In this document: positions 8,357 to 43,081 of the stretch, piece by piece
How positions within the stretch are numbered: the stretch's first letter is position 1
How the letters are laid out: every line of letters starts with the position of its first letter
Source of the DNA: Acidimicrobiaceae bacterium
GTDB lineage: Bacteria; Actinomycetota; Acidimicrobiia; Acidimicrobiales; RAAP-2
Assembly: GCA_947372925.1 (NCBI GenBank)
Contig: CANBVQ010000001.1
Coordinates: 54,286-118,285, forward strand
DNA: 64,000 nt
Reading direction: 5' to 3'
Program-made: the position numbers and the translations under genes
Notes under the pieces: generated by a model
What the model was told of the DNA's origin: nothing
What the model saw: only the letters and a program-made list of their open reading frames with translations
The model's database searches: none

Positions 8357-11300
8357 GTGAAACTAAGGCTCCCAGGATCTTTTGATGTGGCCAGACTGCG
8401 GCGTTTCCGCACCTGGGACACATTTTTATTCGCCCTGATTGCCTATGTGCCCTTCTTTGGTAACAATCCGGGGAAGGTATCTGCCGACACTAAGGCCTAT
8501 CTCTACCTCGATCCAAGCCACCTGCTCGCAACTGCCACCTCTATGTGGAACGCCGATCAAGGCTTCGGCATGGTGACGCACCAAAACATTGGCTACCTCT
8601 TTCCGATGGGGCCATTCTTCTGGCTGACTCACACGATTGGTATTCCGACATGGATAGCGCAGCGTTTCTGGATGGGCTCACTGCTTTTCTTAGCGGGACT
8701 CGGCGTGCGAAAGGCCGCTCAAGAACTGGGCCTCAGCAGAGTGGCATCGTGGAGTGCGGCGCTCCCCTATGTCTTCACGCCATTCATCTTGGTCAACATC
8801 GGAAGAACCTCCGCCATTTTGATGCCTTGGGCCGGTTTGGGCTGGCTACTCCTTTTTGCCATTAGATCCGCACGCTTTGGTGGATGGAAAAACCCCGCCC
8901 GATTCGCGCTCGTAGTGGCCCTCGTCGGTGGAGTTAATGCGACGTCCATCCTCTTGGTGGGTCTCGCGCCAGCAGTGTGGCTGCTATTCGCCGCCACCAC
9001 CAGGGAGATTTCTTGGCGCTCACTCGCTTCCACGGTTTCGCGCATCGGACTTCTATGCAGCTCGGTATCACTTTGGTGGATCGCCGGCCTTTGGGCCGAA
9101 GGCAAATTCGGTATCAATATCTTGCAGTACACCGAAACGATTCCTACGGTCGCCAGTACTTCGAGCAGTTCGGAAGTTTTCCGAGGTTTGGGCTATTGGT
9201 ACTTCTACGGATGGGATCACTCTCAAGCGTGGACTAGCTCATCCGTTGGCTACACCACTGGCCAATTCGCACCCATTTTCAGTTTGATTCTTCCGACCGC
9301 GGCGGTCATCGCCGCCATGTTTGTCAAGTGGCGCTATCGGACATTTTCCGTACTGCTCGCTTTCCTCGGCGTCGTAATTGCAGTTGGTGCGTACCCATAC
9401 AACTCACCTACGCCGGCAGGCTCGGCGCTGAAGTGGTTTGGAGAAAACACCACCGTGGGTCTCGCAATGCGTTCGACTAATCGCGTGGTGCCAATCATGG
9501 TGTTGGCTCTAGGACTACTACTTGGGTCCAGTGTTGATGCGCTGAGAAGCCGCCATCCACGACGTATCTTGCCCGTGTTCGGCCTGATCTTCCTCGCCGC
9601 AACCATCGGATTAACTCCGCTATTCAATGGAACAGCGCTCGCTACGAATCTCAGCTCGTCGCAGAAACTGCCCGCGTACGTTGAGAATGCTGCCAAAGAT
9701 CTGAACTCGGGCGACACATCCACTGGCGTACTCGGCCTCCCTGGCCTCGACTTCGGCTACTACCGATGGGGTGCCTACGTGGACTCTGCTTGGCCTGGAT
9801 TGCTCAAACGGCCCTACGTGACGAGTCAAATTACGCTCCAGGGGCAACCGGCAAGCGTGAATCTCGTTCGATCTCTCGATAGTCCCATTCAGGACTTAAT
9901 AGCCCTGCCGAGGAGCATCGCTCCAATTGCAAGGTTGCTCGGGACTGGTGATGTGCTTTTCCAATTCGATACCCAGTTCGATCGGTTTAGCGGTCCAGAA
10001 CCTTGGTATCTGTGGCGCTTATCGCAGTCACCGAGTTTGGGACTCGTATTCAAAAAGGCCTACGGTCCCGTTGTTACGGATCAAGTCGGCGACGGCCCTT
10101 TCATCAACGAGAGCAACCTCGCTCTGCCTCAAGGATTCAAGTGGCCTCGATCGCTAGCCATCTATGGCGTTCAAGGTGTCCGACAACTCGTCAGAATTGA
10201 GTCAAGTGCGTCTCCTGCAATAGTTGCCGGGGACGGCGAAGGCTTGGTCAATATGGCGGGCCTTGGAATTCTCCCGGAGGATCGGGCTATTTTCTACGAC
10301 GGAGCACTGACCGCTTCGCAACTCGAACGACTGACAGCAAACGCAACTGCCAGTCTGTATGTGACGGACTCCAATCAGCGGCGCCTAAATAGTTACGGCG
10401 TACTTCACTCAAGCCCTGGCTATGTTCAGCAGGCCGGAGAGACACCGATTGTTAAAAGCCCGTCGCAGCAGACGTTGCTGGCGTACCCCGACACAGTTTC
10501 AGGGGCTCAGACTGTTGCCGTATTGGGCAATATCAAATCAGTCCAAGCTTCTTCTTATGGCAATCCAATAGCCAACAATCCCGAAGTGCAGGCCTACTAC
10601 TCGCTTGATGGCCTGGTCGACACAGCGTGGCAAACCTCTGCTTTCGGAAAAGCACCCGGCCAATTTATTCAGATTGACATGGGGCACCGCCTTAGCTTCA
10701 ATCGACTCCGACTCACCCAAGCACAGTCGTCCACGATTAACCGATGGATCACGCAGGTGACGATAACCGTCGACGGAAAATCGCTCGGTAAATTCAGCCT
10801 TTCAAAGTCGACGAGGAGTCGGCGAGGTGGTGTCATCAAACTACCCAAGACTTCAGGTTCGGTTATTCGCATCACCATCAATCAGACGTCCCATGATGAT
10901 GGAAATCTCGCTGGACAGTCTGGGGTTGGTTTCGCTGAGATTTCAATTCCCGGGCTTCCCGCAGTAACTCACAGTTTGATGATGCCAACAAGTCTTTTAA
11001 ACAGAGCCGGCAATGCGGCTCTGGTGAATGATCTCCGTTTTGTCATGACACGTGCTCGAGTGGCAACAACGCCACCAAGGCTTGATCCGGAGCTGACTAT
11101 CGACAGGATGTTTGAACTACCAGCAGGCCGAATGTTCACTATTCGCGGCACCACTTCAATCCAACCCGCTGCATCTGACGCAACCATCAGCCGCCTCCTT
11201 GGCATCGGTGGTTCAAGTAACGGTCAAATTGTGCGATCGTCAAGCTCGACCCGTCTGGTTGGATCATTAACGAATGGCCCATGGGCTGCATTTGACGGTG

Positions 11301-13492
11301 ATCAGACAACGAGCTGGATGCCTGGATTCCAGACGGGGCCCAACACCTGGCTCGAAGGTGGAACTAAGGACTCGACCACCATCTCGCGAGCCAACATCAC
11401 ATTTGTGAATGATGGACTTCACATGGTTCCGACCAGACTCCTTCTCACAGCCGATGGTGGTGCTGGCGGCTCTTACAGCTTCAACACGCACATGAAGATT
11501 GCAAAGAACGCAGCCAGGGGTGCTACCCAAACTCTGAAGGTTTCATTCCCTGCGATGACGGGACGCTCGTTCCGCTTGAGTGTTGATCAGTTTCTGGCTG
11601 TGGGCGTCAAGGACAGAATTTCCGGGGCACTCAACCATCCTCCGATTGCAATTACAGAATGGAAGCTCGGAACCATAAAGCCTGAATCAATCTCTTCTAC
11701 TTTCCGCTCAACTTGCCGAAGCGATCTGATTTCCATCGACGGAACAGGGATTCCTGTGTACGTGCATGGTTCCACCGCTGACGCATTGGCGCAACACCAG
11801 ATTGCGTTCTCTAGCTGCGGAGAGAAATTCTCTCTCTCAGCCGGTACGCATCACCTGCGCGCGGCGTTTGGTGTTGGCACGGGAATCAATATTGACAACA
11901 TTTCACTCGCCTCACTTGCCGACTCCGCCAGTCCAGCGGTAACGCCAATACTGAATCTGAAGAGTCACTGGACAAATCGCTGGAGCATGGAAGCTCGAAT
12001 TCCGGCGAACGCCGCGGGTCAGTATGTCGCTGTTGGTCAGAGCTTCGGCCCAGGATGGACCGCCCGTCTGGATGGAGCAGATCTTGGAGCACCGCTTCTA
12101 ATCGATGGCGCTTCAATGGGATGGCTCCTTCCCTCAAAGATGAGTGGAGCCCAGAACCTAGTAGTGACCTGGACGCCACAAGGGACAGTAAATCTCGCAT
12201 TGCTGGCTTCTCTTTTAGGCCTCCTCCTCTGCCTCGGAATTTCGACTGGAAGGGCTCCTAAGAGTTCCACCTGGATGAGCGATGCGCGTCCCACGGTTCT
12301 TCGTGATCCATCTGTTAGGCGTCCCGCACTGGTCTTTGGCGTGAGTCTCTTAGTTGGCCTCTGTGTTTCGTGGTGGTTTATTCCTTTGAGCCTGCTTGCG
12401 GCTGTGTATCTCTTCTCAAGCCCTTCATCTACCAAATCAATCCCTCGGTTCATCACGGTGCTCTTAGTAACCGCCGGCGGTTGTACTGTCGCGGCAAATC
12501 AGATGCATCTCGTTCGTTCGATTGAATGGCCGAATCACGTTCCGCTAGCCAATGGGTTGACGTGGATTGCGCTGGCTCTTTGGGTAGTGGTGATTATCGC
12601 TACCGGACCCAAGCTCCAGGCGTCAACGGCACAGCCAGTTGGCGAAGACGTGGTTGAAACCGAGCGCCGCCGAGGCCTCAATGTTCCCGTTAGCGCCGAA
12701 TCACTTACAACCGACGAACGCGATCTACTTCCTCTGGTGGTAGCACCTCGCGGGGCTCTACGTTCGCTTGCTCTTCTCCGTGCCTTATTGGTGAAGAGGC
12801 GTGATCCCGATCTATATCGACGGATTGTCCTCACCGACACCATGAATCAGGTAGTCGGCAAGAGCCCTCTGTTCAACAGGAGGATCCTCGAGATTGCTGA
12901 CTTTGATACCTCGTACGCTGCGGGCTTTGCAGAGCGTGGCGCTCGGGTCACATCAATGCGTCGAGAACTGCCTCAGCCCAAGCGTGGCATCGCGAAGATT
13001 GCCAGTCAAAATGCAGACCCCGTGGCACCAGAGGTGGCGTACACCCCGCTGCACATTCCGTCGGGCGATAAGTCATTCGATTTAGTGTTCGCCACGAATG
13101 TCCTCAGTAGTGTTGAGGAGCCTGAGGCTTTGATCAACGAACTAGTCCGTGTTACCCGACCCGGCGGCTCCATTTACCTCCAAAACACCACGTGGTTCTC
13201 GCCATGGGGCGGCAGGGAGACTTCGCCGTGGCATCTAATTTCCGGCAATTTCGCACGACGCGCGTACACGCGCAAGCACGGACACCTTCCCCGCAATGTG
13301 TATTCTCAAAACTTCTTCCGTATCCGCATCAGCGAGGTAATGGAATCGCTCCGTGACGATCCTCGGATAGTGGTTGTCAGCGCTCATCCGCGTTATCTAC
13401 CGGAGAGTTTTGGTTGGTTGCTCCGTATTCCCTTGGTGAACGAACTGCTCACGTTGAGTCTGGTTGTAACCCTCGAAAGAACTGCCGATTAG
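8357..13492 (+). CDS. AftD-family (DUF3367) alpha-(1->3)-arabinofuranosyltransferase-like GT-C membrane protein with two discoidin/CBM32-like domains, fused to a C-terminal Rv0224c/MtrP-like class I methyltransferase domain
   Basis: N-terminal multi-TM region with ADTKAYLYLDP, HQNIGYLFPMGPF and WIAQRFW (AftD-like). Discoidin-like motifs YSLDGLVDTAW and AAFDGDQTTSW. A second TM bundle, then a ~250-aa domain with FDLVFATNV, ELVRVTRPGG, PWGGRET and RKHGHLPRNVY. Confidence 0.85.
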   Translation: MKLRLPGSFDVARLRRFRTWDTFLFALIAYVPFFGNNPGKVSADTKAYLYLDPSHLLATATSMWNADQGFGMVTHQNIGYLFPMGPFFWLTHTIGIPTWIAQRFWMGSLLFLAGLGVRKAAQELGLSRVASWSAALPYVFTPFILVNIGRTSAILMPWAGLGWLLLFAIRSARFGGWKNPARFALVVALVGGVNATSILLVGLAPAVWLLFAATTREISWRSLASTVSRIGLLCSSVSLWWIAGLWAEGKFGINILQYTETIPTVASTSSSSEVFRGLGYWYFYGWDHSQAWTSSSVGYTTGQFAPIFSLILPTAAVIAAMFVKWRYRTFSVLLAFLGVVIAVGAYPYNSPTPAGSALKWFGENTTVGLAMRSTNRVVPIMVLALGLLLGSSVDALRSRHPRRILPVFGLIFLAATIGLTPLFNGTALATNLSSSQKLPAYVENAAKDLNSGDTSTGVLGLPGLDFGYYRWGAYVDSAWPGLLKRPYVTSQITLQGQPASVNLVRSLDSPIQDLIALPRSIAPIARLLGTGDVLFQFDTQFDRFSGPEPWYLWRLSQSPSLGLVFKKAYGPVVTDQVGDGPFINESNLALPQGFKWPRSLAIYGVQGVRQLVRIESSASPAIVAGDGEGLVNMAGLGILPEDRAIFYDGALTASQLERLTANATASLYVTDSNQRRLNSYGVLHSSPGYVQQAGETPIVKSPSQQTLLAYPDTVSGAQTVAVLGNIKSVQASSYGNPIANNPEVQAYYSLDGLVDTAWQTSAFGKAPGQFIQIDMGHRLSFNRLRLTQAQSSTINRWITQVTITVDGKSLGKFSLSKSTRSRRGGVIKLPKTSGSVIRITINQTSHDDGNLAGQSGVGFAEISIPGLPAVTHSLMMPTSLLNRAGNAALVNDLRFVMTRARVATTPPRLDPELTIDRMFELPAGRMFTIRGTTSIQPAASDATISRLLGIGGSSNGQIVRSSSSTRLVGSLTNGPWAAFDGDQTTSWMPGFQTGPNTWLEGGTKDSTTISRANITFVNDGLHMVPTRLLLTADGGAGGSYSFNTHMKIAKNAARGATQTLKVSFPAMTGRSFRLSVDQFLAVGVKDRISGALNHPPIAITEWKLGTIKPESISSTFRSTCRSDLISIDGTGIPVYVHGSTADALAQHQIAFSSCGEKFSLSAGTHHLRAAFGVGTGINIDNISLASLADSASPAVTPILNLKSHWTNRWSMEARIPANAAGQYVAVGQSFGPGWTARLDGADLGAPLLIDGASMGWLLPSKMSGAQNLVVTWTPQGTVNLALLASLLGLLLCLGISTGRAPKSSTWMSDARPTVLRDPSVRRPALVFGVSLLVGLCVSWWFIPLSLLAAVYLFSSPSSTKSIPRFITVLLVTAGGCTVAANQMHLVRSIEWPNHVPLANGLTWIALALWVVVIIATGPKLQASTAQPVGEDVVETERRRGLNVPVSAESLTTDERDLLPLVVAPRGALRSLALLRALLVKRRDPDLYRRIVLTDTMNQVVGKSPLFNRRILEIADFDTSYAAGFAERGARVTSMRRELPQPKRGIAKIASQNADPVAPEVAYTPLHIPSGDKSFDLVFATNVLSSVEEPEALINELVRVTRPGGSIYLQNTTWFSPWGGRETSPWHLISGNFARRAYTRKHGHLPRNVYSQNFFRIRISEVMESLRDDPRIVVVSAHPRYLPESFGWLLRIPLVNELLTLSLVVTLERTAD

Positions 13493-14646
13493 CGCTTTTC
13501 GCTGAGTAGCTGAAAGAGCTTCAAGGCAGCACTGTCCCATGTGAGCGACTGCGCATACTTGAGTGCTCCCTCACGAAGCGACCCAAGCAGCTCTTCGTCC
13601 TGCAGAACATTCGAGATAGTTGTGGCTACTTGCGCCTCATCGACCAGCAGTCCGCTGTGACCATCCATCACGGCGTCACGATGGCCGGCAATGTCTACGG
13701 CCACCGAGGGTGTGCCGCAGGCGGCCGCTTCAGTGAGAGACATCCCCCACCCTTCACGTAACGACATTGAAGAAACCAGCCAGGCGCGCTGATACAGGGC
13801 AAGCAGTTCTCCATCAGAGATTCTGCCCGCCAGCGTTATCCACTCCTGGGCGCCGTGGGCCGCAATCATTTCCTCCAGCTCCGTTCGAAGGTAGCCCTCG
13901 CCAACGATTACGAAACGCGCTGTCGGTACTTTCTTGCGGACTTCAATAAAGGAGTTGATTAAAAGGTCGAAACGCTTCACGGGCACCAACCGACCCACTG
14001 CGACGATCAATGGCGTCGGCGAACGGTCATCCCCGGGAACAAAAGAAGGGGAAATGCCCGGTGGCACTACTGCCACGCGCCGCAAGTGCATGCGATCCCC
14101 AATCTCCTCTTGAGAAGAGTTGGAGAGCGTCGCAATCGTCGTGCCTCGATAGAACGGTGGTGCCAGACGATGCTCAATGAGCCATCCAAGACGCCCTAGA
14201 AGGCCCGGCAAGGTCATCTGCCACATTTCCCCGTGTACGTGGTGGAGAAGCACCAGACGGCGGCCACGGTGCCACAGAGGAGAGAGGAAAGGCATCCCAT
14301 TCCAGATTTCCACCACTCCGTCAGGCCGGTGGGAGCGCCGACTGAAAAGTCCATTCAAAATGACACTCGGGAAGACTTGGTATCGCCCACCCCGACGATT
14401 TGCGACGTAGCCGTTCCGCTCGACTCTCGCAGCACGACCTGGAACGGCTGAAGTGCGAGACTCAATAGCAACTCCCGCAGCCGCCCATCGTTTCAAGATC
14501 TCGTCGGCGTGTAGTTCGGATCCCCCTGCTTCCGGGTCATCAAGATCTCTCCAGGCAACAACATTGACCGAAGTAATACCGCTGGTCTGCACCAGGGTCT
14601 TGAGCGATTCCTGGTCGCTAGGCATTGGAATCTCCGTTGATGCCAA
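13489..14646 (-). CDS. Glycosyltransferase family 4 (GT-B), Rv0225-like
   Basis: WRDLDDPEAGGSE N-terminus, VGRLVPVKRFD and EGWGMSLTEAAACGTP (GT4 EX7E motif). The true start may be ATG at 14625. Confidence 0.88.
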   Translation of the reverse strand: MASTEIPMPSDQESLKTLVQTSGITSVNVVAWRDLDDPEAGGSELHADEILKRWAAAGVAIESRTSAVPGRAARVERNGYVANRRGGRYQVFPSVILNGLFSRRSHRPDGVVEIWNGMPFLSPLWHRGRRLVLLHHVHGEMWQMTLPGLLGRLGWLIEHRLAPPFYRGTTIATLSNSSQEEIGDRMHLRRVAVVPPGISPSFVPGDDRSPTPLIVAVGRLVPVKRFDLLINSFIEVRKKVPTARFVIVGEGYLRTELEEMIAAHGAQEWITLAGRISDGELLALYQRAWLVSSMSLREGWGMSLTEAAACGTPSVAVDIAGHRDAVMDGHSGLLVDEAQVATTISNVLQDEELLGSLREGALKYAQSLTWDSAALKLFQLLSEKR

Positions 14647-15874
14647 TCGGGCGCAAAGTGGCTAGGAGAAGACCCAGGAAGACCACCATCTGGAGGATGA
14701 GATCGCGATGCACTGTTTCCGCAATGGCGCCACCGGCTTGAGCGAGGTAGAGCGCTCCCCCCACTGTGCTGCAGGCCAGCCAGAGCGTCGGCCACCGTCG
14801 ACCAGAACCGAGGAGATACACGGAAAGCAACGTGCTTCCTCCTAGAAATACCATCGCCAAGATCAAGCTTGTCATCGACCCGTACTCCGTGGCGTAGCGA
14901 GACCCAAAGACGAGCGTAAGGAGCCTTTCGGGTGCAAGTTCGGAAGCAATGAGAAGCAGAGCGACCGGGATAAGCAGCAGGCCACCGGCGATTGTCAGCT
15001 GACGGTATGCATCTCGTCCTCGTCGATCGGCAATTGCCGTCTCGGGTAGTAAGAAGTTGCCAAGAATGATCGCCCCATAGACGATTGTCTTCGCCACTTG
15101 TGAGATTGCCGAGTACGCACCCGCAGCGCTGGAGCTATATCGGCCGATCAGAAACACATCGATGAACTGGAGTGTTGCCAGCAATGCGAGTGTCGCCAAT
15201 GCAATCAGGAGATCAGTGGTGATTCCTGTGTGCTCGAGCGCCTGTTCGTTGCGCGCCACATCTCGCACCCGCACGAGCCGTCGAGCGTGCCAACGAGCAA
15301 ATCCAATGGCCACCAAAAGGCCCGCGACGATTCCGGTCACACCGAATGGGCTTCCCAGAACCATGAACACGGTCCGCATGGCACCTTCTAGAAGGAAGTT
15401 GGAAGCGAGCGCCATGTAACGCTGTCGAGACTGGAGAAGCGCTCTGTCAACGTTCAGCAAGGCCCAGGAGATGGCAGCCAGGGCGTTGACCCATACGGCA
15501 AGCCACGAACGATGCCCCATCCACTGAGCCAAGAGGAAAGAGCCAGCCAGCGCGATAAGTGAAAAGATCAGCGCCCATCGAATGAGTCGTTGATTGAGCC
15601 GACGCTGCCAGCGCGCCATAAGAGATTCGTCATCCCTGACGAGGTAGTACGTCGCACGCCTCACCACCGCCACCGAGAGCGCTGAACCAGGAAGCGCGAC
15701 AATGAAGAAGATGCCAACCATCTGGGAGTAGGCACCGTACTCGGTCGGATTTAGAAGGCGAGCTATGAGAACGCTTACGCCAAGATTAAGAATGTTTGCT
15801 ACTAGTCCGGCGAAAGCAACTACGACGGCGCCACTGAGAAGTGCGTTTAGCCGTACCGCTATCCCCCGCGCCAT
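14618..15874 (-). CDS. Wzx-like oligosaccharide flippase / polysaccharide biosynthesis protein
   Basis: About 12 hydrophobic segments; NLGVSVLIARLLNPTEYGAY and DVFLIGRYSSSAAGAYSAISQVAK match the Wzx/MATE-like flippase pattern; glycosyltransferase neighbours. Confidence 0.75.
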   Translation of the reverse strand: MARGIAVRLNALLSGAVVVAFAGLVANILNLGVSVLIARLLNPTEYGAYSQMVGIFFIVALPGSALSVAVVRRATYYLVRDDESLMARWQRRLNQRLIRWALIFSLIALAGSFLLAQWMGHRSWLAVWVNALAAISWALLNVDRALLQSRQRYMALASNFLLEGAMRTVFMVLGSPFGVTGIVAGLLVAIGFARWHARRLVRVRDVARNEQALEHTGITTDLLIALATLALLATLQFIDVFLIGRYSSSAAGAYSAISQVAKTIVYGAIILGNFLLPETAIADRRGRDAYRQLTIAGGLLLIPVALLLIASELAPERLLTLVFGSRYATEYGSMTSLILAMVFLGGSTLLSVYLLGSGRRWPTLWLACSTVGGALYLAQAGGAIAETVHRDLILQMVVFLGLLLATLRPIGINGDSNA

Positions 15875-15882
15875 TGGCGTAG

Positions 15883-17352
15883 CTAAGCCTGAGGAGTGCG
15901 CGCTGGCAGAATCGGGGCGTCCCTACCGGTGCCGCCCTTGCCCGTCTCGTGATATTCCTCTTCGACGTTCACATTCCAAACATCGTGGTTTCCACCGTAA
16001 ATGTTGTCCACTGTCAATATTGCAGTGAACATTGAGTGATCCTGATTGTTGTACTTGTGCATGCCGTTACGTCCGATTAAGTGGACGTTGCTGGCTTCTG
16101 TCTCGAGATATGTTGCGATCGTCTTGACGTTCGCCTGATAGTGGCTGTCGTAGTAGGGGTAAGCCTTGGGCATTCGGAACACGTAGCCCATCTCGACGTC
16201 GGCAGCCTTCGCCAGTCCGAGGTACTCCAACTCGCGCTTGCCCTGTTCAATGAGGTCCTCATCGCGGGCATTCCACAACTCGTCGCCCTCAAACACGAAG
16301 AATTCTAGGCCCAAGCACGTGCGACCTTCTTTGACCAGAAACGGAGACCAAGAACCGAAGTTTTGAATACGGCCTACCTTGACTTCCTCAGCGTGAATGT
16401 AAATCCAATTGTCCGGGAAGGCCAGTTCCTCTGGAATCACAAGAGCGACTGTCAGGAAGTCGCGGTAGTGCAGACCGTGACCGGCTGTCAAAATTTCGCT
16501 CGGTAGTGCTGGCTTGAAGGCATCAACCAATTGGGCCATTGGCATTGTGGATATGACGTGTGACGCTGGCTGAAAACTCGCAGAACCGTCACTATTTACA
16601 ACATCAACTCCGGTCGCCTTGCCACCTTCAACTCTGATACCGACGACTTTTGTCTTCAGGTGAACTTGGCCACCCTTGGCAGCGATTAACTCGGCACACT
16701 TCTCCCACATCATGCCCGGACCAAACTTGGGGTACTGAAACTCCTCAATGAGTGAAGTGATCTCAGTTTGCCCACGCTTGGGCAGCAGGGCATTCAAGAT
16801 TGCATTACTGAGCGAGAGACTCTTAACGCGCTGAGCCGCCCAGTCGGCAGGCATCTCCTTAACGGGAACTCCCCATACCTTCTGGGTATAGGTCTCAAAG
16901 AACCGTCGATAGAGACGCCATCCGAATCGAGCTACCAGCCAGCCTTCGTAGTTGGTCTGATCTTTTGGTGGGCGCACTCTCGCCCACACGTAGCTCAAGA
17001 CGCACAGCACGGCCTCGAAAGGGCCGAGATTCTTTAGTGCGTTACCGGCTTTCAGGGGGTAGTCGTAGTACTTGCCGTCGTAGAAAATTCGACTCATGCG
17101 CGGGCGCAACAGAAAGTCCTCGTCGGGCAGAATCTCATGCCACAACTCTTCTACTTCCTTGACCTTGGTGAAGAACCTATGGCCGCCAATGTCAAATCTC
17201 CAGCCATCGCGCTCTACGGTGCGACTGATACCACCGACAACGCTGTCACCTTCGTAAACGATGACCGAGCCACCGCGCTTGACGATTTCGTATGCGGCGG
17301 TGAGACCGGCGGGACCACCGCCGATAACAACGATGGGGTTTGCTTCACTCAT
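15883..17352 (-). CDS. NAD(P)/FAD-dependent oxidoreductase, UDP-galactopyranose-mutase-like / HemY-fold family
   Basis: GGGPAGL dinucleotide fold, VGGISRT, FDIGGHRFF, KAYPYYD and GRNGMHKYNNQDHSM. Confidence 0.75.
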   Translation of the reverse strand: MSEANPIVVIGGGPAGLTAAYEIVKRGGSVIVYEGDSVVGGISRTVERDGWRFDIGGHRFFTKVKEVEELWHEILPDEDFLLRPRMSRIFYDGKYYDYPLKAGNALKNLGPFEAVLCVLSYVWARVRPPKDQTNYEGWLVARFGWRLYRRFFETYTQKVWGVPVKEMPADWAAQRVKSLSLSNAILNALLPKRGQTEITSLIEEFQYPKFGPGMMWEKCAELIAAKGGQVHLKTKVVGIRVEGGKATGVDVVNSDGSASFQPASHVISTMPMAQLVDAFKPALPSEILTAGHGLHYRDFLTVALVIPEELAFPDNWIYIHAEEVKVGRIQNFGSWSPFLVKEGRTCLGLEFFVFEGDELWNARDEDLIEQGKRELEYLGLAKAADVEMGYVFRMPKAYPYYDSHYQANVKTIATYLETEASNVHLIGRNGMHKYNNQDHSMFTAILTVDNIYGGNHDVWNVNVEEEYHETGKGGTGRDAPILPARTPQA

Positions 17353-17376
17353 GGCTAAACACTAGCCAAGACAGGG

Positions 17377-18933
17377 CTACTCGTGAAAGGGCAAAAGAGT
17401 CACATTCATGGACTGGTAAAAACCCGTCAGACGGGCCTGAAGAACTCTCACGGTGGGACGCCCAGTGGCCAATGCGATGTCTCGAACGACGGCTTTACAG
17501 GTACCTTTCAGGGTGTATCCCGACGACCACACGACGTAAATATCGCGGTTACCAGCCGCGGCGGTCACGGTAGACCCCGCAATCGAAGGTGAGGTTGCCT
17601 TAAATGCGGCCTTGTAGTCATACCAATTTACGATTGTTGGATTGGTGTACCGAGGGTACGAGCTGAATTCTAAGTCGCTGCGGGCATATCGGAGCACCGA
17701 CGGGCCGATCTGGTCTGGGCACATGAAAACGTAGGAGTCCGGCTTTGCGGTAGCCAGTACGGAGGCAACCTGGCCCGCCTGAGAGCGCTGCACGTTCCGG
17801 CCCCACTTGTCCGTCCAGAGCATTCCACCCGAAACTACGAGCAGTACAAGAAGTATGCGCACCGGCTTCTCGAGGACCATTACACCGCGTGCGACCAGCA
17901 ACGTGAGGGGTATTGCAATAACCGATGCGTAGCGAGGAACGAACGTGGTGTGGCCAAAATGACTGGCCAAAAGACCCACAAGCATTGTTCCGAAAACAAC
18001 AGTGACCAGGAACCTCGTTGCTGTTGGCACGCGAAAGTCCAGTTCGACGAGAAAGCGATCCTTCATGGCAACCGCAAATACTCCAAGCAGTACGAGGCTG
18101 ATGAATAGCAACAAGTTCACTTGATGGTGCAGCGACGGGGTGATGTGCTGTCGGCTCTGATTGACAATGAAGCCTTCAATCCAATTAAGAAACTGAAAGA
18201 ACGCCGGCGCCGGAGACCATGGCGTACCCGTGTGGAGTCGTTGCTCATTAAATATTGGCAGCCACGGAAGCCAGAGAATTCCGCCCCCCACAATGGCGAG
18301 AGCCTTGAACTTCAATTCGTTGCTGATCGAGCGCTTTTGCCAGACTTCAGAGACCAGAGCAAGAAACAAAACGACAATTAGGTATATAGACCAGTAGTGG
18401 GTGTAGAGGAGCATCGTCACAAGAGCCATCGACATGATGGACTTCTTAAGTGGCGAAACCTGCCAATTGCCGATCCAGACGAAGAGCAGCAGGGCGGACT
18501 CCAACATCACGAGGGAGTACATCCTGGCTTCGGTACCGAAATAGACCCCGTAGGGCAATACTGCGAGCACGGCAGTAGCCACGAAGGCATGCTTAGAGCC
18601 CCAGAGGCGCCGAGTCAGGGCGAAGGCGACGCCCAAACCGAGCACTGAGATGACTCCTGAAAGTGCCCTCACGGCAGAGTCCGAGTGGCCGAACAGCGTC
18701 ATCCAGAAATGTAGGAGGAAGTAATACAGCGGAGGTGCTCCGTCATTTCGCAGATGGTCCACCAGTTGACCTAACGAGGTACTTGCGATGTTGACGCTCA
18801 AAGCCTCATCTAGCCACAATTTCGAGGACGTGGAAAACCGGAGCAATATGCCAATTGCGACATCAATAGCCACCAGCAACGCAATACCAATGGGGCTGAG
18901 GCTCGAAACAACTTTCCAGAGGCGCTTCATCAA
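17377..18933 (-). CDS. GT-C glycosyltransferase, family 39 / PMT-2-like membrane protein
   Basis: LWLDEALS, DGAPPLYYFLLHFW, EARMYSL and LYTHYW motifs; many TM segments; soluble C-terminal domain. Confidence 0.8.
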   Translation of the reverse strand: MMKRLWKVVSSLSPIGIALLVAIDVAIGILLRFSTSSKLWLDEALSVNIASTSLGQLVDHLRNDGAPPLYYFLLHFWMTLFGHSDSAVRALSGVISVLGLGVAFALTRRLWGSKHAFVATAVLAVLPYGVYFGTEARMYSLVMLESALLLFVWIGNWQVSPLKKSIMSMALVTMLLYTHYWSIYLIVVLFLALVSEVWQKRSISNELKFKALAIVGGGILWLPWLPIFNEQRLHTGTPWSPAPAFFQFLNWIEGFIVNQSRQHITPSLHHQVNLLLFISLVLLGVFAVAMKDRFLVELDFRVPTATRFLVTVVFGTMLVGLLASHFGHTTFVPRYASVIAIPLTLLVARGVMVLEKPVRILLVLLVVSGGMLWTDKWGRNVQRSQAGQVASVLATAKPDSYVFMCPDQIGPSVLRYARSDLEFSSYPRYTNPTIVNWYDYKAAFKATSPSIAGSTVTAAAGNRDIYVVWSSGYTLKGTCKAVVRDIALATGRPTVRVLQARLTGFYQSMNVTLLPFHE

Positions 18934-19011
18934 GTCAGAATCCTATGCCGTCACCATGAACCCAAGATGGCATTGAAATTGAGTATTCTCACTAAGTCTG
19001 AAAGAGGAGCA

Positions 19012-20001
19012 GTGCTTAAGTACTTCACAAAACGACTAGTTGCGCTGGTGTTGATCATCACCGCAATTTCCATCGGAAGCTTTTACATGATCCACTTGCT
19101 TCCTGGCGACCTGGCGACGGTCATTCTCGGAAGCGGCAACACCCCCGAGAATAAGAAGAAGTTGTTCGCCCAGTTGGGCCTCGACAAGGGACTTGTTCAC
19201 CAGTACCTCACATGGATGAGCCACGTACTTCGGGGAGACCTTGGTAAGTCCTACATCACTAACGAATCGATTAACACCTCCATCGCCAAGGCCCTTCCGA
19301 TCGACCTCGAAATGATCGTCGTCTCACAGATTGTGGCGTTCGCAGCAGCAATTCCACTGGCGATGAAGGCCGCCAAGAAGCCCAATGGCTTATTTGACCG
19401 TATTAGCAATGGCGTGACATTCGGACTGCTTAGTGTCCCGTCATTCATCATTGTGGTGTATCTAGTACTAATAATCGCCATTAAGTGGCAGGTACCGGGA
19501 ACTGGACCCGCGAGCTTCACCCGTTTTCCGGAATGGAGCTGGCTTTTTAGCGACACCGGCACGTTCTTCACAACACTGAAGGACAATCTGATGAGTTTGC
19601 TCATCCCTTCGCTCACTCTCTCGATTGGCTCTTTCGTTGTCTATTTCCGAGTACTTCGCTCTGACCTAATCGCAACACTCCAAGAGGAATACATCACAAT
19701 GGCACGCTCGAAGGGCCTCTCGCGCCGACGCATCATGTGGCGCCACGCATTCCGACCCTCCTCAGTCGCTCTGCTCGGTACTGCCGGTATCAACATCGGA
19801 GGACTTATCGCGGGTGGCTTCGTAGTCCAATATCTGCTCTCGATTCCCGGACTGGGAAGCCTCTTGATTGCATCCATCACCCTTCAGGACTACTTGGTTA
19901 TCCAGAGCACGGTGTTCGTCGTGGCCGTTGCGGTCATCGTGATCAACTTCGCAGTCGATTTCATCACCACCCTCGTTGACCCAAGGATTGCCCGTGACTA
20001 A
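19012..20001 (+). CDS. Peptide/nickel ABC transporter permease (DppB/OppB-like)
   Basis: HLLPGDLA, QYLTWMSHVLRGDLGKSY and the EAA loop EEYITMARSKGL. GTG start at 19012 after SD AGAGGAG. Confidence 0.9.
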   Translation: MLKYFTKRLVALVLIITAISIGSFYMIHLLPGDLATVILGSGNTPENKKKLFAQLGLDKGLVHQYLTWMSHVLRGDLGKSYITNESINTSIAKALPIDLEMIVVSQIVAFAAAIPLAMKAAKKPNGLFDRISNGVTFGLLSVPSFIIVVYLVLIIAIKWQVPGTGPASFTRFPEWSWLFSDTGTFFTTLKDNLMSLLIPSLTLSIGSFVVYFRVLRSDLIATLQEEYITMARSKGLSRRRIMWRHAFRPSSVALLGTAGINIGGLIAGGFVVQYLLSIPGLGSLLIASITLQDYLVIQSTVFVVAVAVIVINFAVDFITTLVDPRIARD

Positions 20002-20881
20002 TAACGAAGTTGTCATAAACGCCGCTGAGTCCGTTGTGGAGCAGCCGGAGAAGAAAGCTCCCATCGGCATCTTCACCTGGATTTGCGTTGGCTGGCTCGC
20101 CATAAACGTGCTGGTCGCCGTATTGGCCCCATTGCTGCCTATTCCAGACCCCAACGAGATGATCAGTATGCCCGGGATGGGAATGTCGTTCGATCACCTC
20201 ATGGGCACTGATGATTTGGGCCGAGACATCTTTGGTCGCCTTGCCTGGGGATCACGGATTTCACTGGGTGTTGGCATTGGTTCAATGGCCATCGCATTCG
20301 GCGTCGGCGGACCACTAGGCATGCTGGCGGCCTACCGCCGCGGCAAGATGGACGTAATCATGTCTTCGGTGATGTTCACCTTCCTGGCTTTTCCCTCCAT
20401 TATCGCGATCATTGCCGTTCTCTCTTTTTGGACTCCAAGGTCGCTCGGCAAGATCATCATTGTCATCGGAATCTCGTCAATCCCGCTCGTTTACCGAGTA
20501 ATGCGCGCCGCAGCATTGAGTGCTGGTAGCAAGGAATACGTGACTGCGGCACGTGTACAAGGCGCCCGAGACCGACGAATCATCTTCCGTGAGCTCCTGC
20601 CGAACGTCGCACCGACGGGTCTCTCCTTCCTCTTGTTCGGTGTTGCTACGGTCATTGCACTTGAGGGTGTACTTGCCTTCTTGGGACTTTCAATTGCCCC
20701 CGACATCGCACCGTCTTGGGGAAACATGATTAATGACGCCCGTCAATCACTGAACAATGTGCCCCAAAATTGGCCTCTCATCATCTTCCCTTCAGCAATC
20801 CTGTGCCTTTTCATCCTGGCGCTGAACTTTGTTGGAGACCGACTCCGTTCCTACTTCGATGTCACTGAGGTCAAGCTGTGA
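19994..20881 (+). CDS. Peptide/nickel ABC transporter permease (DppC/OppC-like)
   Basis: HLMGTDDLGRDIFGRL, EYVTAARVQGA, FLGLSIAPDIAPSWG. GTG at 19994 after AGGA (the track starts at TTG 19976). Confidence 0.9.
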   Translation: MTNNEVVINAAESVVEQPEKKAPIGIFTWICVGWLAINVLVAVLAPLLPIPDPNEMISMPGMGMSFDHLMGTDDLGRDIFGRLAWGSRISLGVGIGSMAIAFGVGGPLGMLAAYRRGKMDVIMSSVMFTFLAFPSIIAIIAVLSFWTPRSLGKIIIVIGISSIPLVYRVMRAAALSAGSKEYVTAARVQGARDRRIIFRELLPNVAPTGLSFLLFGVATVIALEGVLAFLGLSIAPDIAPSWGNMINDARQSLNNVPQNWPLIIFPSAILCLFILALNFVGDRLRSYFDVTEVKL

Positions 20882-21954
20882 GCCAAGAAATCAATTCAAC
20901 TAATCAGAATCCTGCCGGCGACTTGCTCGTTGTCGAGAATCTCACTACGACATTCCAAACCGCACGAGGTGCGCTACCTGCCGTAGGTGGCGTTAGCTTC
21001 CGACTCGGTGCCAACGAAATTCTCGGTGTTGTAGGGGAATCTGGCTCCGGTAAAACGGTACTCAGTCGAACCATCATGGGTCTGCAGCCTCGTACCAACG
21101 TCGAAGTTGGGGGCTCTGTCCTACTCGACGGACATCAGATTGTTGGAGCCACCGACGAGGATCTGCGCGACATCTGGGGAACAAAAGTCGCGATGATTTT
21201 CCAAGACCCAATGACTTCATTGAATCCTGTCACCAAAATTGGGAAGCAGATTGGCGAATCCCTCCAGGTTCGCCTGGGGATGAATAAGGCTGAGGCGAAG
21301 GCTCGAGTGATCGAGCTACTCACCCTTGTTGGTATTCCATCACCTGAAGAGCGCTACGACGCCTACCCAACGCAGCTGTCTGGTGGTATGCGTCAGCGCG
21401 TCATGATTGCTATCGCCTTGGCCTGCAACCCAACTCTTCTCCTCGCTGACGAGCCCACCACGGGACTCGACGTGACTATCCAGGCGCAAATCCTGAACCT
21501 GCTTGACGAACTTCAGCTCAAGATGAAGATGAGCGTCATCCTCGTAACTCACGACCTAGGCGTCGTAGCCACGCGCACCGACAGAATCATCGTCATGTAT
21601 GCAGGTCGGATTGTCGAGATGGGAACCACCAAAGAGGTTTTCCGTAATCACAAGATGCCCTATACCCGAGCTCTTCTGGAATCGACGCCTCGCGTTTCGA
21701 ATCCAAGCCACACACGCCTTCAGACGATTCCGGGTCGACCACCAAACCTCCTCAAACTGACGGAGGGCTGTGCCTTCGCACCGCGTTGTAGTCGGGCTAC
21801 CGAAAAGTGTTCGCAAGAGAGGCCAACTCTCGAGCCAACTGGCGTCGACGGGCACTATTTCGCCTGTTGGAACCCACTTGAAGATCAAGCAGCACCGGTA
21901 TCGATTCAAACTGGCACCATTAAGGAAATCGGAGAAGACAATGTCCGAGGCTAA
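20878..21954 (+). CDS. Peptide ABC transporter ATP-binding protein (DppD/OppD-like)
   Basis: [24 protein letters not shown] and the C-terminal Cys motif GCAFAPRC...ACW. Confidence 0.92.
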
Positions 21955-22918
21955 TAACAAGGTCGTTCTGTCCGTAAAGGATCTTGAGGTCACGTTCCGT
22001 AAGGGTCGCCAGCGTGTTAGCGCTGTGGCCGGAATATCTTTCGACCTCTACGAGGGGGAAACTCTCGGTCTCGTTGGTGAGTCTGGCTGCGGTAAGTCGA
22101 CCACTGGTCGTGCCCTAATGCAGATTGTGCCTTCCACGGGAGGCCAGATCTTCGTTGATGGTGACGAACTGACGAGCCTGAATAAGGACGAAGCCCGCAA
22201 CCTACGTCGCAAGATGCAGATGATTTTTCAGGACCCAATTAGTTCACTAAACCCTCGTCGACGCGTTAAGGACATCGTGGCAGAGCCACTGGACTGCTGG
22301 AAGTTGGCCAAGGGTGCAGAGCGCGACTCGATTGTTTCCGATCTACTAAACAAGGTCGGCATCGACCCTGCGGTCTACGGCAATCGCTATGCGCGCCAAT
22401 TCTCTGGCGGTCAATGTCAGCGTATTTCGATCGCACGTTCTCTCGCCATGCGGCCACGTTTGCTGATTTGTGACGAGGTGGTTTCGGCTCTTGACGTGTC
22501 AATTCAGGCTCAGATTCTGAATCTGCTCGAGGACCTGAAGAAGGAGTATGGACTAACCATGCTCTTCATTGCACACGACCTTGCAGTGGTCAAGAACATC
22601 TCAGACCGGGTTGCCGTCATGTACCTAGGCAAGCTCTGCGAGATCGGGCCCAGCGACACGTTGTACGCAAAGCCAGCCCACCCGTACACAGAATTCTTGC
22701 TGGGTGCTGCCCTTGAGGCCGATCCTGAGCTCGAGCAGAGCAGCGCCACCTTGGGTGGAGAGCCACCAAGCCCTCTCAACCCACCTAGTGGCTGCCGTTT
22801 CCGTACTCGTTGCCCCTTTGCTACCGAGAAGTGCGCCGCTGAAGAGCCGCAGCTTCGCGACATCGGCGAGGGTCACCAGGTCGCTTGTCACTTCCCTCTC
22901 GTGGGAGCCCACCAGTAA
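21941..22918 (+). CDS. Peptide ABC transporter ATP-binding protein (DppF/OppF-like)
   Basis: GESGCGKST, FSGGQCQR, PAHPYT, GCRFRTRC...VACH. ATG at 21941 after GGAG. Confidence 0.92.
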   Translation: MSEANNKVVLSVKDLEVTFRKGRQRVSAVAGISFDLYEGETLGLVGESGCGKSTTGRALMQIVPSTGGQIFVDGDELTSLNKDEARNLRRKMQMIFQDPISSLNPRRRVKDIVAEPLDCWKLAKGAERDSIVSDLLNKVGIDPAVYGNRYARQFSGGQCQRISIARSLAMRPRLLICDEVVSALDVSIQAQILNLLEDLKKEYGLTMLFIAHDLAVVKNISDRVAVMYLGKLCEIGPSDTLYAKPAHPYTEFLLGAALEADPELEQSSATLGGEPPSPLNPPSGCRFRTRCPFATEKCAAEEPQLRDIGEGHQVACHFPLVGAHQ

Positions 22919-41087: not shown

Positions 41088-42292
41088 GATTCACTGCAAC
41101 GCGAGTTTCGGAGGATTTTGTCAATCGAGCCGTGGAGCAAGCCACGCTAAGCGGTTGGCTCGTACAAGATGGTTCATCTCTGCGTTGTGGTTTCGGTTCA
41201 CCAGTTGCCAGCCGTACCTGCGACTCACTTGCTGAGTTGCCAGCCGCCTTGGATCTGTTTCGAGACATCGACGAACCTCATGCGCCGTTGCTCACAGCGT
41301 TTTCCAGTGTTCCCTTCGATCGCAACGGAGCATTTGAAGTTGTGATTCCAAGGTTTCAGGTCATTTCAGATGACGTTGCTGGTGACTGGTTTCTTGCCCC
41401 CGAAAATGAGACGTGGAGCGAAACCAGCGAACCAGCGCGGCCCTCCCTTCTCCCAAAGCAGGTCAGTTTTCGCTACTCCCCCTCACCCGACCACTACGCC
41501 GCCGCTGTGGCCGAAGCGGTGGAGAGGCTCCGGGAAGGAACCCTTCAAAAAGTTGTGTTGGCCCGGAGCTGCCAGGGTGAACTTTCAGCTGACATCAACA
41601 CCTCGGCCATTGCCACCAGGCTCCATAATCTCGAACCAAGTTGCACCATCTATGCAATGCCGACACCTGACGGATGCCGGTTCACCGGAGCGAGCCCGGA
41701 GCTTCTGGTATCCAAATTTGGTCGATCTGTGCACTGTCACCCGCTCGCGGGAACAATCAGCATCGAAGGAATGGCCGACGCAACGGCCTACACCAAGTGG
41801 CTGCACGGCTCACCAAAAAATCGCGTAGAGCATCGAATTGTCGTTGATGAGATTGTCGCTCATCTCACGGACCTCTGCGACTCCATCGTCGCCGACAATG
41901 AACCCTCCATAGTGCCGCTTCGCTCAGTTGCCCACCTTGGGACTGACATTGCAGCGGTGGCTAAGGACGACGTCACAATCCTGAACCTGTTGGCGAGCCT
42001 CCATCCCACTCCCGCGGTAGGTGGCCTCCCACGCGAAGTGGCTGAAGCGCTGATCGACGAACTCGAACCTTTCCGTCGAGGCGCCTACGCCGGCGCGGTG
42101 GGCTGGTTCAATGCCTTGGGTGACGGAGCATGGTGGGTCGCCATTCGCGGCATATTGACGAGCGGTCCCCATTTCGAAGTGTGGGCCGGTGCGGGAATCG
42201 TCGCTGATTCAGATCCGATTGCCGAACGCGAAGAGACTAAATACAAGATGGATTCCGTACTTCACGCCATCGGGCTGGGAACGCTTAATTAA
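41084..42292 (+). CDS. menF: Isochorismate synthase
   Basis: KVVLARS, FTGASPELL, PLAGT, KNRVEHRIVV, LHPTPAVGG, YAGAVGW, AGAGIV...E. Confidence 0.88.
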   Translation: MRFTATRVSEDFVNRAVEQATLSGWLVQDGSSLRCGFGSPVASRTCDSLAELPAALDLFRDIDEPHAPLLTAFSSVPFDRNGAFEVVIPRFQVISDDVAGDWFLAPENETWSETSEPARPSLLPKQVSFRYSPSPDHYAAAVAEAVERLREGTLQKVVLARSCQGELSADINTSAIATRLHNLEPSCTIYAMPTPDGCRFTGASPELLVSKFGRSVHCHPLAGTISIEGMADATAYTKWLHGSPKNRVEHRIVVDEIVAHLTDLCDSIVADNEPSIVPLRSVAHLGTDIAAVAKDDVTILNLLASLHPTPAVGGLPREVAEALIDELEPFRRGAYAGAVGWFNALGDGAWWVAIRGILTSGPHFEVWAGAGIVADSDPIAEREETKYKMDSVLHAIGLGTLN

Positions 42293-43007
42293 GGCGTGGT
42301 CCGCCAACGAGTCGCGCAACTCCCCATTTGGTGACCATCCAGAGAGCCTCTGTGACGATCGCGCGAGACATTTTTGATTCGCCCTCGGTGCGATCGGTGA
42401 ACGAGATCGGATGCTCAACGATTGTTGCTCCACCGCGCCGAGCTCGATACGTCATCTCAATTTGAAAGCCATACCCATCGGCTTTCACGTGACTGTAGTT
42501 AATCTTCTCCAGCGCGCTCGCCTGATAGACCCGATATCCAGCTGTTGAATCCGAGACGCCGAGGCCCAGCATCATGGAGGCATAGCGATTGCCTCCCTTG
42601 GACAGCAACAGCCTGCTTGTTGACCACGAGGGTATGGACCCTCCGGGGATATACCGAGAACCGATGACCACTTCATAGTCAGCAGCCAGGGCCAGCATTG
42701 TTGGAAGTTCACGCGGGTCGTGAGAGAAATCGCAATCGATCTCAACAAAGGCGTCGAACTGGTGTTCTAGGCCCCATGCAAAACCGGCTCGATATGCGCT
42801 GCCAAGTCCGCTCTTGCCAGTCCGCTTAAGAACTTCAATGCTGCCTAGCTCGAGGCCAACGCGTTCAGCGACATCAGCGGTACCGTCAGGGCTTCCGTCA
42901 TCCACAACCAAAATCTGCTCGTTGGGGACAATTGAACGAATCGCACGCAACATTCGCTCAATATTTTCGATTTCGTTATACGTGGGCAAAACCACTAACG
43001 CCTTCAT
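42285..43007 (-). CDS. ppm1: Polyprenol monophosphomannose synthase (GT2), stand-alone without an Lnt domain
   Basis: LPTYNE, VDDGSPDGT, KSGLGSAY, IDCDFSH, VIGSRY, DSTAGYR, GYGFQIE, ESKMS. Confidence 0.88.
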   Translation of the reverse strand: MKALVVLPTYNEIENIERMLRAIRSIVPNEQILVVDDGSPDGTADVAERVGLELGSIEVLKRTGKSGLGSAYRAGFAWGLEHQFDAFVEIDCDFSHDPRELPTMLALAADYEVVIGSRYIPGGSIPSWSTSRLLLSKGGNRYASMMLGLGVSDSTAGYRVYQASALEKINYSHVKADGYGFQIEMTYRARRGGATIVEHPISFTDRTEGESKMSRAIVTEALWMVTKWGVARLVGGPRLN

Positions 43008-43081
43008 TTAAGCAAATCTAGTCGTATAAAGCGGGTTGAGTGTTCCCATTTCGCGATGATTTGTGCAACGCTGTAGGGAGC

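Follow-up and report, generated by a model that had tools for sequence, protein, structure and literature searches.

We analyzed a 64,000-nucleotide stretch of DNA (the window) from an Acidimicrobiaceae bacterium of the GTDB group RAAP-2 (contig CANBVQ010000001.1, positions 54,286 to 118,285), in which five long open reading frames (ORFs) lie packed together as a cassette. They encode an AftD-like glycosyltransferase (GT) of the GT-C class with a methyltransferase-like domain at its C terminus, a cytosolic GT4 enzyme, a candidate flippase, a flavoprotein resembling UDP-galactopyranose mutase (UGM), and a second GT-C of the PMT_2 family (Table 1). ORF calling confirmed all five at the coordinates claimed in an initial annotation of this DNA, together with its gaps and overlap: 24 nt lie between the PMT_2 and flavoprotein genes and 8 nt between those for the flavoprotein and the flippase, the flippase and GT4 ORFs overlap by 29 nt, and the AftD and GT4 ORFs are convergent and overlap by 4 nt. 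The cassette lies between housekeeping genes, uvrC, uvrA, uvrB, and coaE to one side and rpsA with an opp-type ABC transporter to the other. The source genome is 1.49 Mb in size and 96% complete, and its nearest protein relatives carry the labels Acidimicrobiales or freshwater metagenome.

Conservation of the five-gene unit

Neighborhood comparison bore out the expectation that these genes co-occur in relatives. One related genome, G008, has an identical order from rpsA through the opp, PMT_2, flavoprotein, flippase, GT4, and AftD genes to coaE and uvrB, and G017, G016, and G021 agree with the cassette order as far as their contigs reach. Both this order and the rpsA-opp flank are also found in at least eight metagenome-assembled genomes (MAGs) of other Acidimicrobiales (L043, L046, L055, L064, L087, L093, L097, and L103), and the compact PMT_2-flavoprotein-flippase-GT4-AftD arrangement occurs in at least 10 genomes. 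AftD adjoins coaE-uvrB in another family as well, and both flanks are conserved across families.

Within the genus, only 5 of 25 genomes carry AftD and the cassette, and the flavoprotein has the same carriers where they are complete, while G023 has a divergent copy at another place. Six genomes of the genus that lack the cassette have a clean empty site, with oppB about 140 bp from coaE and the flanking genes all in order. The five genes are therefore supported as a conserved unit that is present or absent en bloc. The cassette has no compositional or GC anomaly and both of its flanks are common to other families, which does not favor recent horizontal acquisition; the simplest reading is that an ancestral cassette was lost from most of the genus. 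Across 41 related genomes, AftD and the flavoprotein occurred together in 12, AftD alone in 1 (an incomplete genome), the flavoprotein alone in 4, and neither in 24. The corresponding counts for AftD and DprE1 were 11 with both, 2 with AftD only, 17 with DprE1 only, and 11 with neither, which links AftD less closely to DprE1 than to the flavoprotein.

Table 1. Features of the window and of contig C3 of the same genome (positions are those of the window)
Feature	Position	Strand	Match
AftD-family GT-C, 1711 aa	8357-13492	+	PF11847
GT-C catalytic domain of the AftD-like protein, residues 31-695	8447-10441	+	Pfam envelope
Two discoidin-type (F5/8 type C / NedA-like) carbohydrate-binding modules, residues 729-844 and 978-1074	10541-11578	+	
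Methyltransferase-like C-terminal domain of AftD, residues ~1440-1711	12674-13492	+	
GT4 (GT-B, retaining-type) cytosolic glycosyltransferase, 385 aa	13489-14646	-	
MOP-superfamily (Wzx-like) 12-helix membrane protein, candidate flippase, 418 aa	14618-15874	-	
FAD flavoprotein, NF005548, homologue of eukaryote-type UGM, 489 aa	15883-17352	-	
PMT_2 GT-C with C-terminal extracytoplasmic domain, 518 aa	17377-18933	-	PF13231
GT2, polyprenyl/dolichyl-phosphate hexose synthase class, candidate donor supplier	42285-43007	-	PF00535, 86 bits
UPF0104 / LPG_synthase_TM flippase-like membrane protein, divergent from the GT2	43040-44110	+	PF03706, 85.5 bits; TIGR00374, 67.9 bits
DprE1	contig C3		NF053785, 514.5 bits (equivalog cut-off 500)
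DPPR synthase (decaprenyl-phosphate phosphoribosyltransferase, UbiA)	contig C3		NF008978, 330 bits (cut-off 207)
DprE2	contig C3		NF053786, 239 bits (just under cut-off 250)

Families, folds, and active sites of the encoded proteins

The AftD-like protein combines an N-terminal GT-C domain of 11 transmembrane (TM) helices, periplasmic discoidin-type modules, a C-terminal TM bundle, and the cytosolic methyltransferase-like domain. This architecture and its score against GT-C_AftD (PF11847; 246.8 bits against a Pfam cut-off of 26) place it in the AftD family, and the structure of Mycobacterium abscessus AftD (6W98) aligned over residues 20-1309 (E = 1e-37). Its discoidin-type modules match PF00754 (F5/8 type C; 56 bits) and PF22633 (28.4 bits), with a weak match to CBM_AftD. 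Residues K39, D41, E251, K361, and D474 are essential in M. abscessus AftD (bioRxiv 10.1101/2019.12.22.885152); in a pairwise alignment K39, E251, and D474 are identical here, K361 is replaced by arginine and D41 by tyrosine, and W272 and R357 are likewise kept. Judged from the sequences, the catalytic site of the PMT_2 enzyme appears intact, and that of the AftD-like protein may be. Cassette-type AftD is a divergent subfamily, with 36-68% identity among cassette orthologues versus 25-27% to the canonical-type AftD of related genomes. Homologues of AftD occur in 11 other actinobacterial orders, with no function assigned there (bioRxiv 10.1101/2019.12.22.885152), and arabinofuranosyl transfer by the cassette type may differ, as two AftD-positive relatives are without DprE1.

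That AftD is fused to a methyltransferase was right only in part: the fused C-terminal domain is real, but its S-adenosylmethionine (SAM)-binding motifs I and II are lost. Methyltransf_11 scores 36.3 bits on the last 270 residues, covering the C-terminal half of the model only, and the domain is 33% identical (E = 1.5e-37) to a methyltransferase fused to GT4 in G037. All three AftD-fused copies of the genus lack both the motif I GxGxG, reading ILEIADFDTSY, VLQLSNLPQSV, or VLEIADPRLAA at that site, and the acidic residue of motif II; unfused or GT4-fused homologues have DLGCGPG, DIGGGPG, or DLGAGAG and keep the acidic residue. Because both motifs are lost, we read the AftD-fused domain as a pseudo-enzyme, probably catalytically dead and kept for a structural role. 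Downstream of the lost motifs, a WGG(x)ETSPWH block stays conserved. None of the other 80 loci of our comparison had this domain close to AftD, and the AftD fusion is therefore specific to the present lineage.

The neighboring GT4 has the GT-B domains of its family (PF00534, Glycos_transf_1, 109.9 bits; PF13439, 32.2 bits in Pfam) and reaches no NCBIfam equivalog. In 20 of 80 related loci, cassette-type AftD has an orthologue of this GT4 (50-59% identical) beside it. The methyltransferase-GT4-AftD core named in the initial annotation does recur within the order Acidimicrobiales, with GT4 and methyltransferase separate in G040 and fused in frame in two other genomes, G037 (L017:6484-8691) and G027 (L026:2042-4624), where the methyltransferase domain is intact. 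The G037 fusion adjoins a canonical-type AftD (Pfam, 659 bits). This core parallels the mtrP/cgp_3167/aftD locus of Mycobacteriales, in which we take cgp_3167 to be the GT4 Rv0225. A search for Rv0224c and Rv0225 orthologues in two Mycobacteriales-labelled MAGs, with a natural GT4-methyltransferase fusion as the query, returned generic GT4 matches only, and we infer the likeness of the GT4 to Rv0225 solely from its linkage to AftD and the methyltransferase. AftD plus GT4, with or without the methyltransferase, is one of two recurrent modules joined in the cassette and a relative of the mycobacterial mtrP/Rv0225/aftD set.

The flavoprotein belongs to an NCBIfam family named only as a hypothetical protein (NF005548, 776.6 bits) and falls below the bacterial Glf models (PF03275, 18.6 against 26.3 bits; TIGR00031, 30.8 against 303.75). 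Its best sequence relatives in the PDB are the UGMs of Aspergillus fumigatus and Trypanosoma cruzi (E = 1e-23), at 21-22% identity. An AF2 model (pLDDT 83.3) has the three-domain UGM fold, with 4DSH, 3UKQ, and 3UKH as the best Foldseek matches (TM-scores of 0.77-0.83, E = 1e-28) and protoporphyrinogen oxidase folds in second rank. The UGM His loop is present as FDIGGHRFF (GGH, the equivalent of His63), and the equivalents of H63, R182, W315, Y317, R327, Y453, and N457 are kept and are invariant in 13 family members. Fold and conserved catalytic and diphosphate-binding residues uphold the original description of a mutase-like flavoprotein, and they support a UGM-like protein with predicted mutase activity. 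N-terminal fusions of this protein (1237 aa in G040 and 985 aa in G034) were rejected as frame artefacts in GC-rich DNA, the extensions being low-complexity antisense translation. The one flavoprotein homologue among the cassette-less genomes of the genus (57% identity, in G023) lies at a different locus within a 983-aa ORF (L034:7071-10022), the C-terminal part of which matches Methyltransf_11.

The second GT-C had been described as a GT39/PMT-2 enzyme, of which the PMT_2 assignment holds (PF13231, 52.7 bits against a cut-off of 26.1, with an acidic first-loop motif) and GT39 is not supported, the Pfam scan having given PMT_2 only and no match to the protein O-mannosyltransferase family PMT (PF02366) or to a MIR domain. 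Its first-loop motif W40-L41-D42-E43 and the two cysteines of its C-terminal domain are at least 90% conserved in 44 PMT_2 homologues, and NCBIfam returned a weak match to a lipoarabinomannan-capping mannosyltransferase. We counted flavoprotein neighborhoods in the set of 80 related loci, drawn from named genomes, and found a PMT_2 homologue within 10 kb of the flavoprotein in 48 of them, mostly directly adjoining; many of the other loci encode members of a second family of polytopic proteins, which weakly resemble PIG-V. Small GT2 enzymes of polyprenyl-phosphate type, 51% identical homologues of the GT2 in the window, lie in or near the flavoprotein/GT-C operon in 10 of the 80 loci, and the operon in G033 runs flavoprotein, PMT_2, acyltransferase-3 (Acyl_transf_3), PpgS-like GT2. 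Micromonospora, Frankia, Protofrankia, Actinomadura, and Kitasatospora have flavoproteins at least 60% identical to the present one. This second recurrent module of the cassette, the UGM-like flavoprotein with its GT-C partner, is spread through Actinomycetota.

The 418-residue membrane protein matched no Pfam family, PF01943 and PF13440 included, and gave a weak NCBIfam match to SpoVB (E = 0.0066). An AlphaFold (AF2) model built from 15 homologues (pLDDT 83.7, pTM 0.82) retrieved MATE, WzxE, and MurJ structures in Foldseek, with the top TM-scores for the lipid III flippase WzxE (9G9P; TMq 0.73, TMt 0.75). A distant orthologue at L097:13014-14612 matches PF01943 with E = 7e-6, its 26.0 bits lying below the cut-off of 28.2. 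By its model the protein is Wzx-like at the level of the fold, a 12-helix member of the MOP superfamily that lies outside the Pfam families by sequence. The proposal of a Wzx-like flippase is thereby borne out as to fold, and flipping is its predicted activity.

Donor and primer genes elsewhere in the genome

DprE1, DprE2, and DPPR synthase are encoded next to one another on contig C3, in an operon with a GT4-like gene alongside and unlinked to the cassette. The arabinofuranose donor decaprenyl- or polyprenyl-phospho-arabinofuranose (DPA) can therefore be made, and with DprE1 present in 21 of the 25 genomes, this ability is core to the genus. Near the DPA operon, C3:4376-22776 encodes an MMPL transporter, a GT2, a GT4, and a 734-aa protein with 10 TM helices and no Pfam or NCBIfam match; four unrelated genes (IMP-dehydrogenase-like, GMP-synthase-like, a helicase, and one more) separate these glycan genes from the GT4-like/UbiA/DprE1/DprE2 operon. 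In G037, DprE1 (C1:313810-315151) is split over two overlapping frames in an otherwise complete genome, possibly through a frameshift or as a pseudogene.

The GT2 of the window has its best NCBIfam matches among dolichyl-phosphate hexose transferases, AglJ, PpgS, and ArnC, all below cut-off. We rejected it as a cassette-specific gene, as it and its UPF0104 partner occur in cassette-less genomes: the GT2 is found at 65-70% identity in G006, G002, and G023, and both are core in the genus. A second PF00953 (WecA-like) gene also lies elsewhere in the genome.

Searches of the whole genome found no Emb (PF04602) and no canonical Glf (PF03275). BLAST of the genome revealed no AftA-like protein and no paralogue of AftD or PMT_2, with AftB, AftC, and Mpt-type enzymes not searched for specifically. 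No real ORF of the genome contains a type-I ketosynthase (KS) motif, and Pks13 and a type I fatty acid synthase (FAS-I) are accordingly absent; a KS-motif match on contig C43 was a spurious 81-aa frame, and a 3041-aa ORF on C27, considered as FAS-I, encodes a repetitive surface protein instead. The latter (C27:2263-11388) is rich in Ser, Thr, and Ala, begins with a signal-like segment, and probably represents a giant surface protein that might be glycosylated.

These results support the initial picture of a complete furanose pathway only in part. The division of labor read from the domains stands, with a cytosolic GT4, a MOP-fold flippase, and two GT-C enzymes, but the cassette itself encodes neither a priming phosphoglycosyltransferase nor donor synthesis, and the DPA operon, the GT2, and the WecA-like gene all lie elsewhere. 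A furanose glycan is plausible given the DPA genes, with the sugars, the acceptor, and the flavoprotein substrate remaining deductions. The claim that this is not an ordinary aftD locus held up: the genome check found dprE1, dprE2, and ubiA, but no Emb, canonical Glf, or Pks13-type motif.

A proposed assembly route and its alternatives

At slightly better than even confidence, we propose that this dispensable, ancestrally syntenic cassette of the Acidimicrobiales elaborates one envelope glycan or lipoglycan, built inside the cell, flipped, and finished outside. Each step of this model is read from protein family, fold, or genome content. The GT4 would glycosylate a membrane-anchored acceptor in the cytoplasm, either a polyprenyl-diphosphate sugar primed by the unlinked WecA-like enzyme or a glycolipid, and the UGM-like flavoprotein would contract the ring of a nucleotide sugar to its furanose form. 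The MOP-fold protein would flip the lipid-linked intermediate, after which the PMT_2 and AftD-like GT-Cs could extend or decorate the polymer outside the membrane from polyprenyl-phosphate sugars, the AftD-like enzyme holding the polymer by its discoidin-type modules. Donors would come from unlinked core genes, DPA from the DprE1/DprE2/UbiA operon on C3 and a polyprenyl-phosphate sugar from the GT2 at 42285-43007. The methyltransferase-like domain at the cytosolic end of AftD presumably no longer binds SAM and may act as a scaffold or regulator.

Several observations weigh against this model. The weakest link is the passage of the mutase product to a GT-C, as a cytosolic nucleotide-sugar mutase by itself supplies no GT-C; the best-supported route would be a small GT2 that loads the sugar onto polyprenyl phosphate, and the only candidate GT2 here is a core gene. 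The uridine/uracil contacts of A. fumigatus UGM are changed in the flavoprotein (F106 to L, Q107 to K, and N163 to T, leaving the equivalent of W167 as the sole one of the four kept), and its substrate is therefore not fixed by its likeness to UGM. No primer enzyme is encoded in the cassette, nor a polyprenyl-phosphate sugar synthase of its own, as the unlinked GT2 also occurs in cassette-less genomes. D41, essential in M. abscessus AftD, aligns to a tyrosine. With DprE1 in 21 of 25 genomes of the genus versus 5 of 25 for AftD, DPA must have another consumer, and that AftD uses DPA is something we infer; the 734-aa C3 protein is perhaps such a consumer. Finally, G033 and G040 have AftD and the flavoprotein without DprE1, and most of the 80 loci contain the flavoprotein-GT-C pair but neither AftD nor GT4, which means that the modules need not share a product.

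This last pattern, which extends to Micromonospora, Frankia, Actinomadura, and Kitasatospora, gives a distinct if minority chance to two independent modules joined by inherited synteny, with AftD and GT4 working on one glycan, perhaps an arabinan made from DPA, the flavoprotein and PMT_2 on a different polymer or protein, and the MOP protein serving one of them. AftD and the flavoprotein are indeed 13-15 kb apart, with other genes between, in G037, G032, G033, and G027. Within the genus, however, the five genes come and go together at one site, 12 of 13 AftD-positive genomes have the flavoprotein, and the compact five-gene order recurs in at least 10 genomes. It is less probable that the flavoprotein acts on a lipid-linked sugar, as a ring mutase of polyprenyl-phosphate sugars or a DprE1-like 2'-oxidase, and so makes the donor of its partner GT-C directly. 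Such an activity would suit a protein whose conserved partner is a GT-C, which uses lipid-linked donors, rather than a cytosolic transferase, whose fungal uracil contacts are not conserved, and whose model scores nearly as well against protoporphyrinogen oxidase folds as against UGM; it would also account for AftD-like genes and the flavoprotein in G033 and G040 without DprE1. The invariant His loop, both diphosphate-binding arginines, the tyrosines, and an NQDHS block fit a sugar diphosphate and flavin-N5 chemistry instead, a small GT2 encoded within or close to the operon of the flavoprotein, as in G033 and in 10 of 80 loci, agrees with a soluble donor that is transferred to lipid later, and the source genome already has DprE1 and DprE2.

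Protein O-glycosylation, in which PMT_2 would modify secreted proteins with a glycan that the remaining genes provide or trim, seems improbable to us. The PMT_2 family is related to protein mannosyltransferases and a polyprenyl-phosphate hexose synthase-like GT2 lies in the window, but the enzyme has no PMT (PF02366/GT39) match, its family also includes lipid- and glycan-modifying enzymes, and its weak NCBIfam match is to a lipoarabinomannan-capping enzyme. AftD-type enzymes with carbohydrate-binding modules, moreover, act on polysaccharides (bioRxiv 10.1101/2019.12.22.885152). An ordinary mycobacterial-type aftD locus, embedded in a full arabinogalactan/mycolate pathway, is the least credible explanation and one to which we give almost no weight, in spite of DprE1, DprE2, DPPR synthase, and an MMPL-family transporter: the lack of Emb, canonical Glf, an AftA-like protein, AftD or PMT_2 paralogues, Pks13, and FAS-I sets the locus apart from it, and this is a genome of only 1.49 Mb from the Acidimicrobiales in whose genus the cassette is dispensable.

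We also offer a more tentative synthesis, the chances of which we put well below even. Its first element is that the flavoprotein with its obligate GT-C, often accompanied by GT2 and acyltransferase-3, could be an unrecognized, widespread route to lipid-linked furanose donors, serving furanosylation outside the membrane in Acidimicrobiales, Micromonospora, Frankia, Actinomadura, and beyond. In DPA-less genomes, cassette-type AftD would then use the donor of this route rather than DPA. The AftD- and GT4-methyltransferase fusions, in turn, would predict that MtrP binds the cytosolic face of AftD or Rv0225 rather than methylating a lipid.

Similarities to known systems extend to parts of the cassette. 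Three-component periplasmic glycosylation (GtrA/GtrB/GtrC, CsbB/GtcA/YfhO, ArnC/ArnT, and PpgS/Rv3779) pairs a small polyprenyl-phosphate glycose synthase of family GT2 with a GT-C, much as a GT2 lies in or near the flavoprotein/GT-C operon in some of our loci, but here a UGM-like flavoprotein is added, the flippase is of MOP type and not GtrA, and the GT2 is unlinked and core to the genus. Wzx/Wzy pathways likewise place a MOP-fold protein of the size and fold of WzxE beside glycosyltransferases; in contrast, the five genes include no Wzy polymerase, chain-length regulator/co-polymerase, or initiating phosphoglycosyltransferase, and the outside steps fall to GT-Cs. Assembly of lipomannan/lipoarabinomannan and arabinogalactan in Mycobacteriales also proceeds from a cytosolic GT4 acting on a lipid anchor, through flipping, to GT-Cs fed by polyprenyl-phosphate mannose and DPA, and the DPA pathway genes are present in our source genome; EmbABC and AftA-like proteins were not found here, and a Wzx-like MOP protein is encoded with the transferases. 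The flavoprotein shares with eukaryote-type UGM (3UTE/3UKH of A. fumigatus, 4DSG/4DSH of T. cruzi) its fold, the GGH loop, and R182, R327, Y317, Y453, and N457, and differs in its low identity, in positions F106, Q107, and N163, and in having a GT-C rather than a Golgi or cytosolic galactofuranosyltransferase as its neighbor.

The closest parallel is the tmaT/aftD locus of Mycobacteriales, which comprises mtrP (Rv0224c), cgp_3167, mmpA, tmaT (Rv0228), and aftD (Rv0236c), the members of mtrP/cgp_3167/aftD sharing phenotypes and AftD binding the acyltransferase TmaT (2026 preprints). In both loci a GT4 and a class-I methyltransferase-like protein are linked to an AftD GT-C that has carbohydrate-binding modules, and acyltransferase-3 (TmaT-family) genes occur in related Acidimicrobiales clusters, some fused to GT-C. 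The cassette differs in lacking tmaT, mmpA, and lmcA, in a genome without Emb, Glf, or mycolates; its methyltransferase-like domain is fused to AftD and degenerate; and it has the MOP flippase, the UGM-like flavoprotein, and PMT_2 instead. Adjoining the flavoprotein, PMT_2-acyltransferase-3 fusions are encoded at L027:5605-8133 (G025; 842 aa) and L028:7564-10242 (G037; 892 aa), a covalent version of the partnership between a GT-C and a TmaT-family protein that was recently reported for AftD and TmaT in mycobacteria.

We found no paper linking AftD with Acidimicrobiia, on PRK07208, or on UGM with GT-C in Actinobacteria. The cassette is a real, conserved system that we have not found described, a variant of GT-C-based envelope glycan assembly. 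Envelope assembly in mycobacteria depends on a still poorly understood node made up of AftD, MtrP, Rv0225, and TmaT (2026 preprints). In these actinobacteria, which make no mycolates, a related AftD-GT4-methyltransferase core is dispensable and has a flippase, a UGM-like flavoprotein, and a second GT-C as partners, so that its effect on a glycan can be studied in a less complicated context. With DPA genes core in the genus, arabinofuranose-type glycans are predicted in Acidimicrobiales. The cassette is also a well-conserved case of an unexplained pairing, that of a large bacterial family of UGM-like proteins with GT-Cs, and its function can be tested directly in cultivable Micromonospora, Frankia, and Actinomadura, whose flavoproteins reach at least 60% identity.

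In Actinomadura hibisca (L078:6225-17153), the flavoprotein gene lies between two GT2-TagF-like (Glyphos_transf) fusions, directly followed by a GT-C of AftA_N type, an arrangement that points to a teichoic-acid-like polymer with furanosyl decoration in a strain that can be cultivated. At the PMT_2 edge of the present cassette, the oppBCDF-like operon (18967-22918) is divergent from the PMT_2 gene and has no adjoining solute-binding protein gene. Relatives L082, L087, L097, L102, and L116 have an SBP_bac_5 gene between oppB and PMT_2, and the adjacency of opp and cassette is kept across Acidimicrobiales families.

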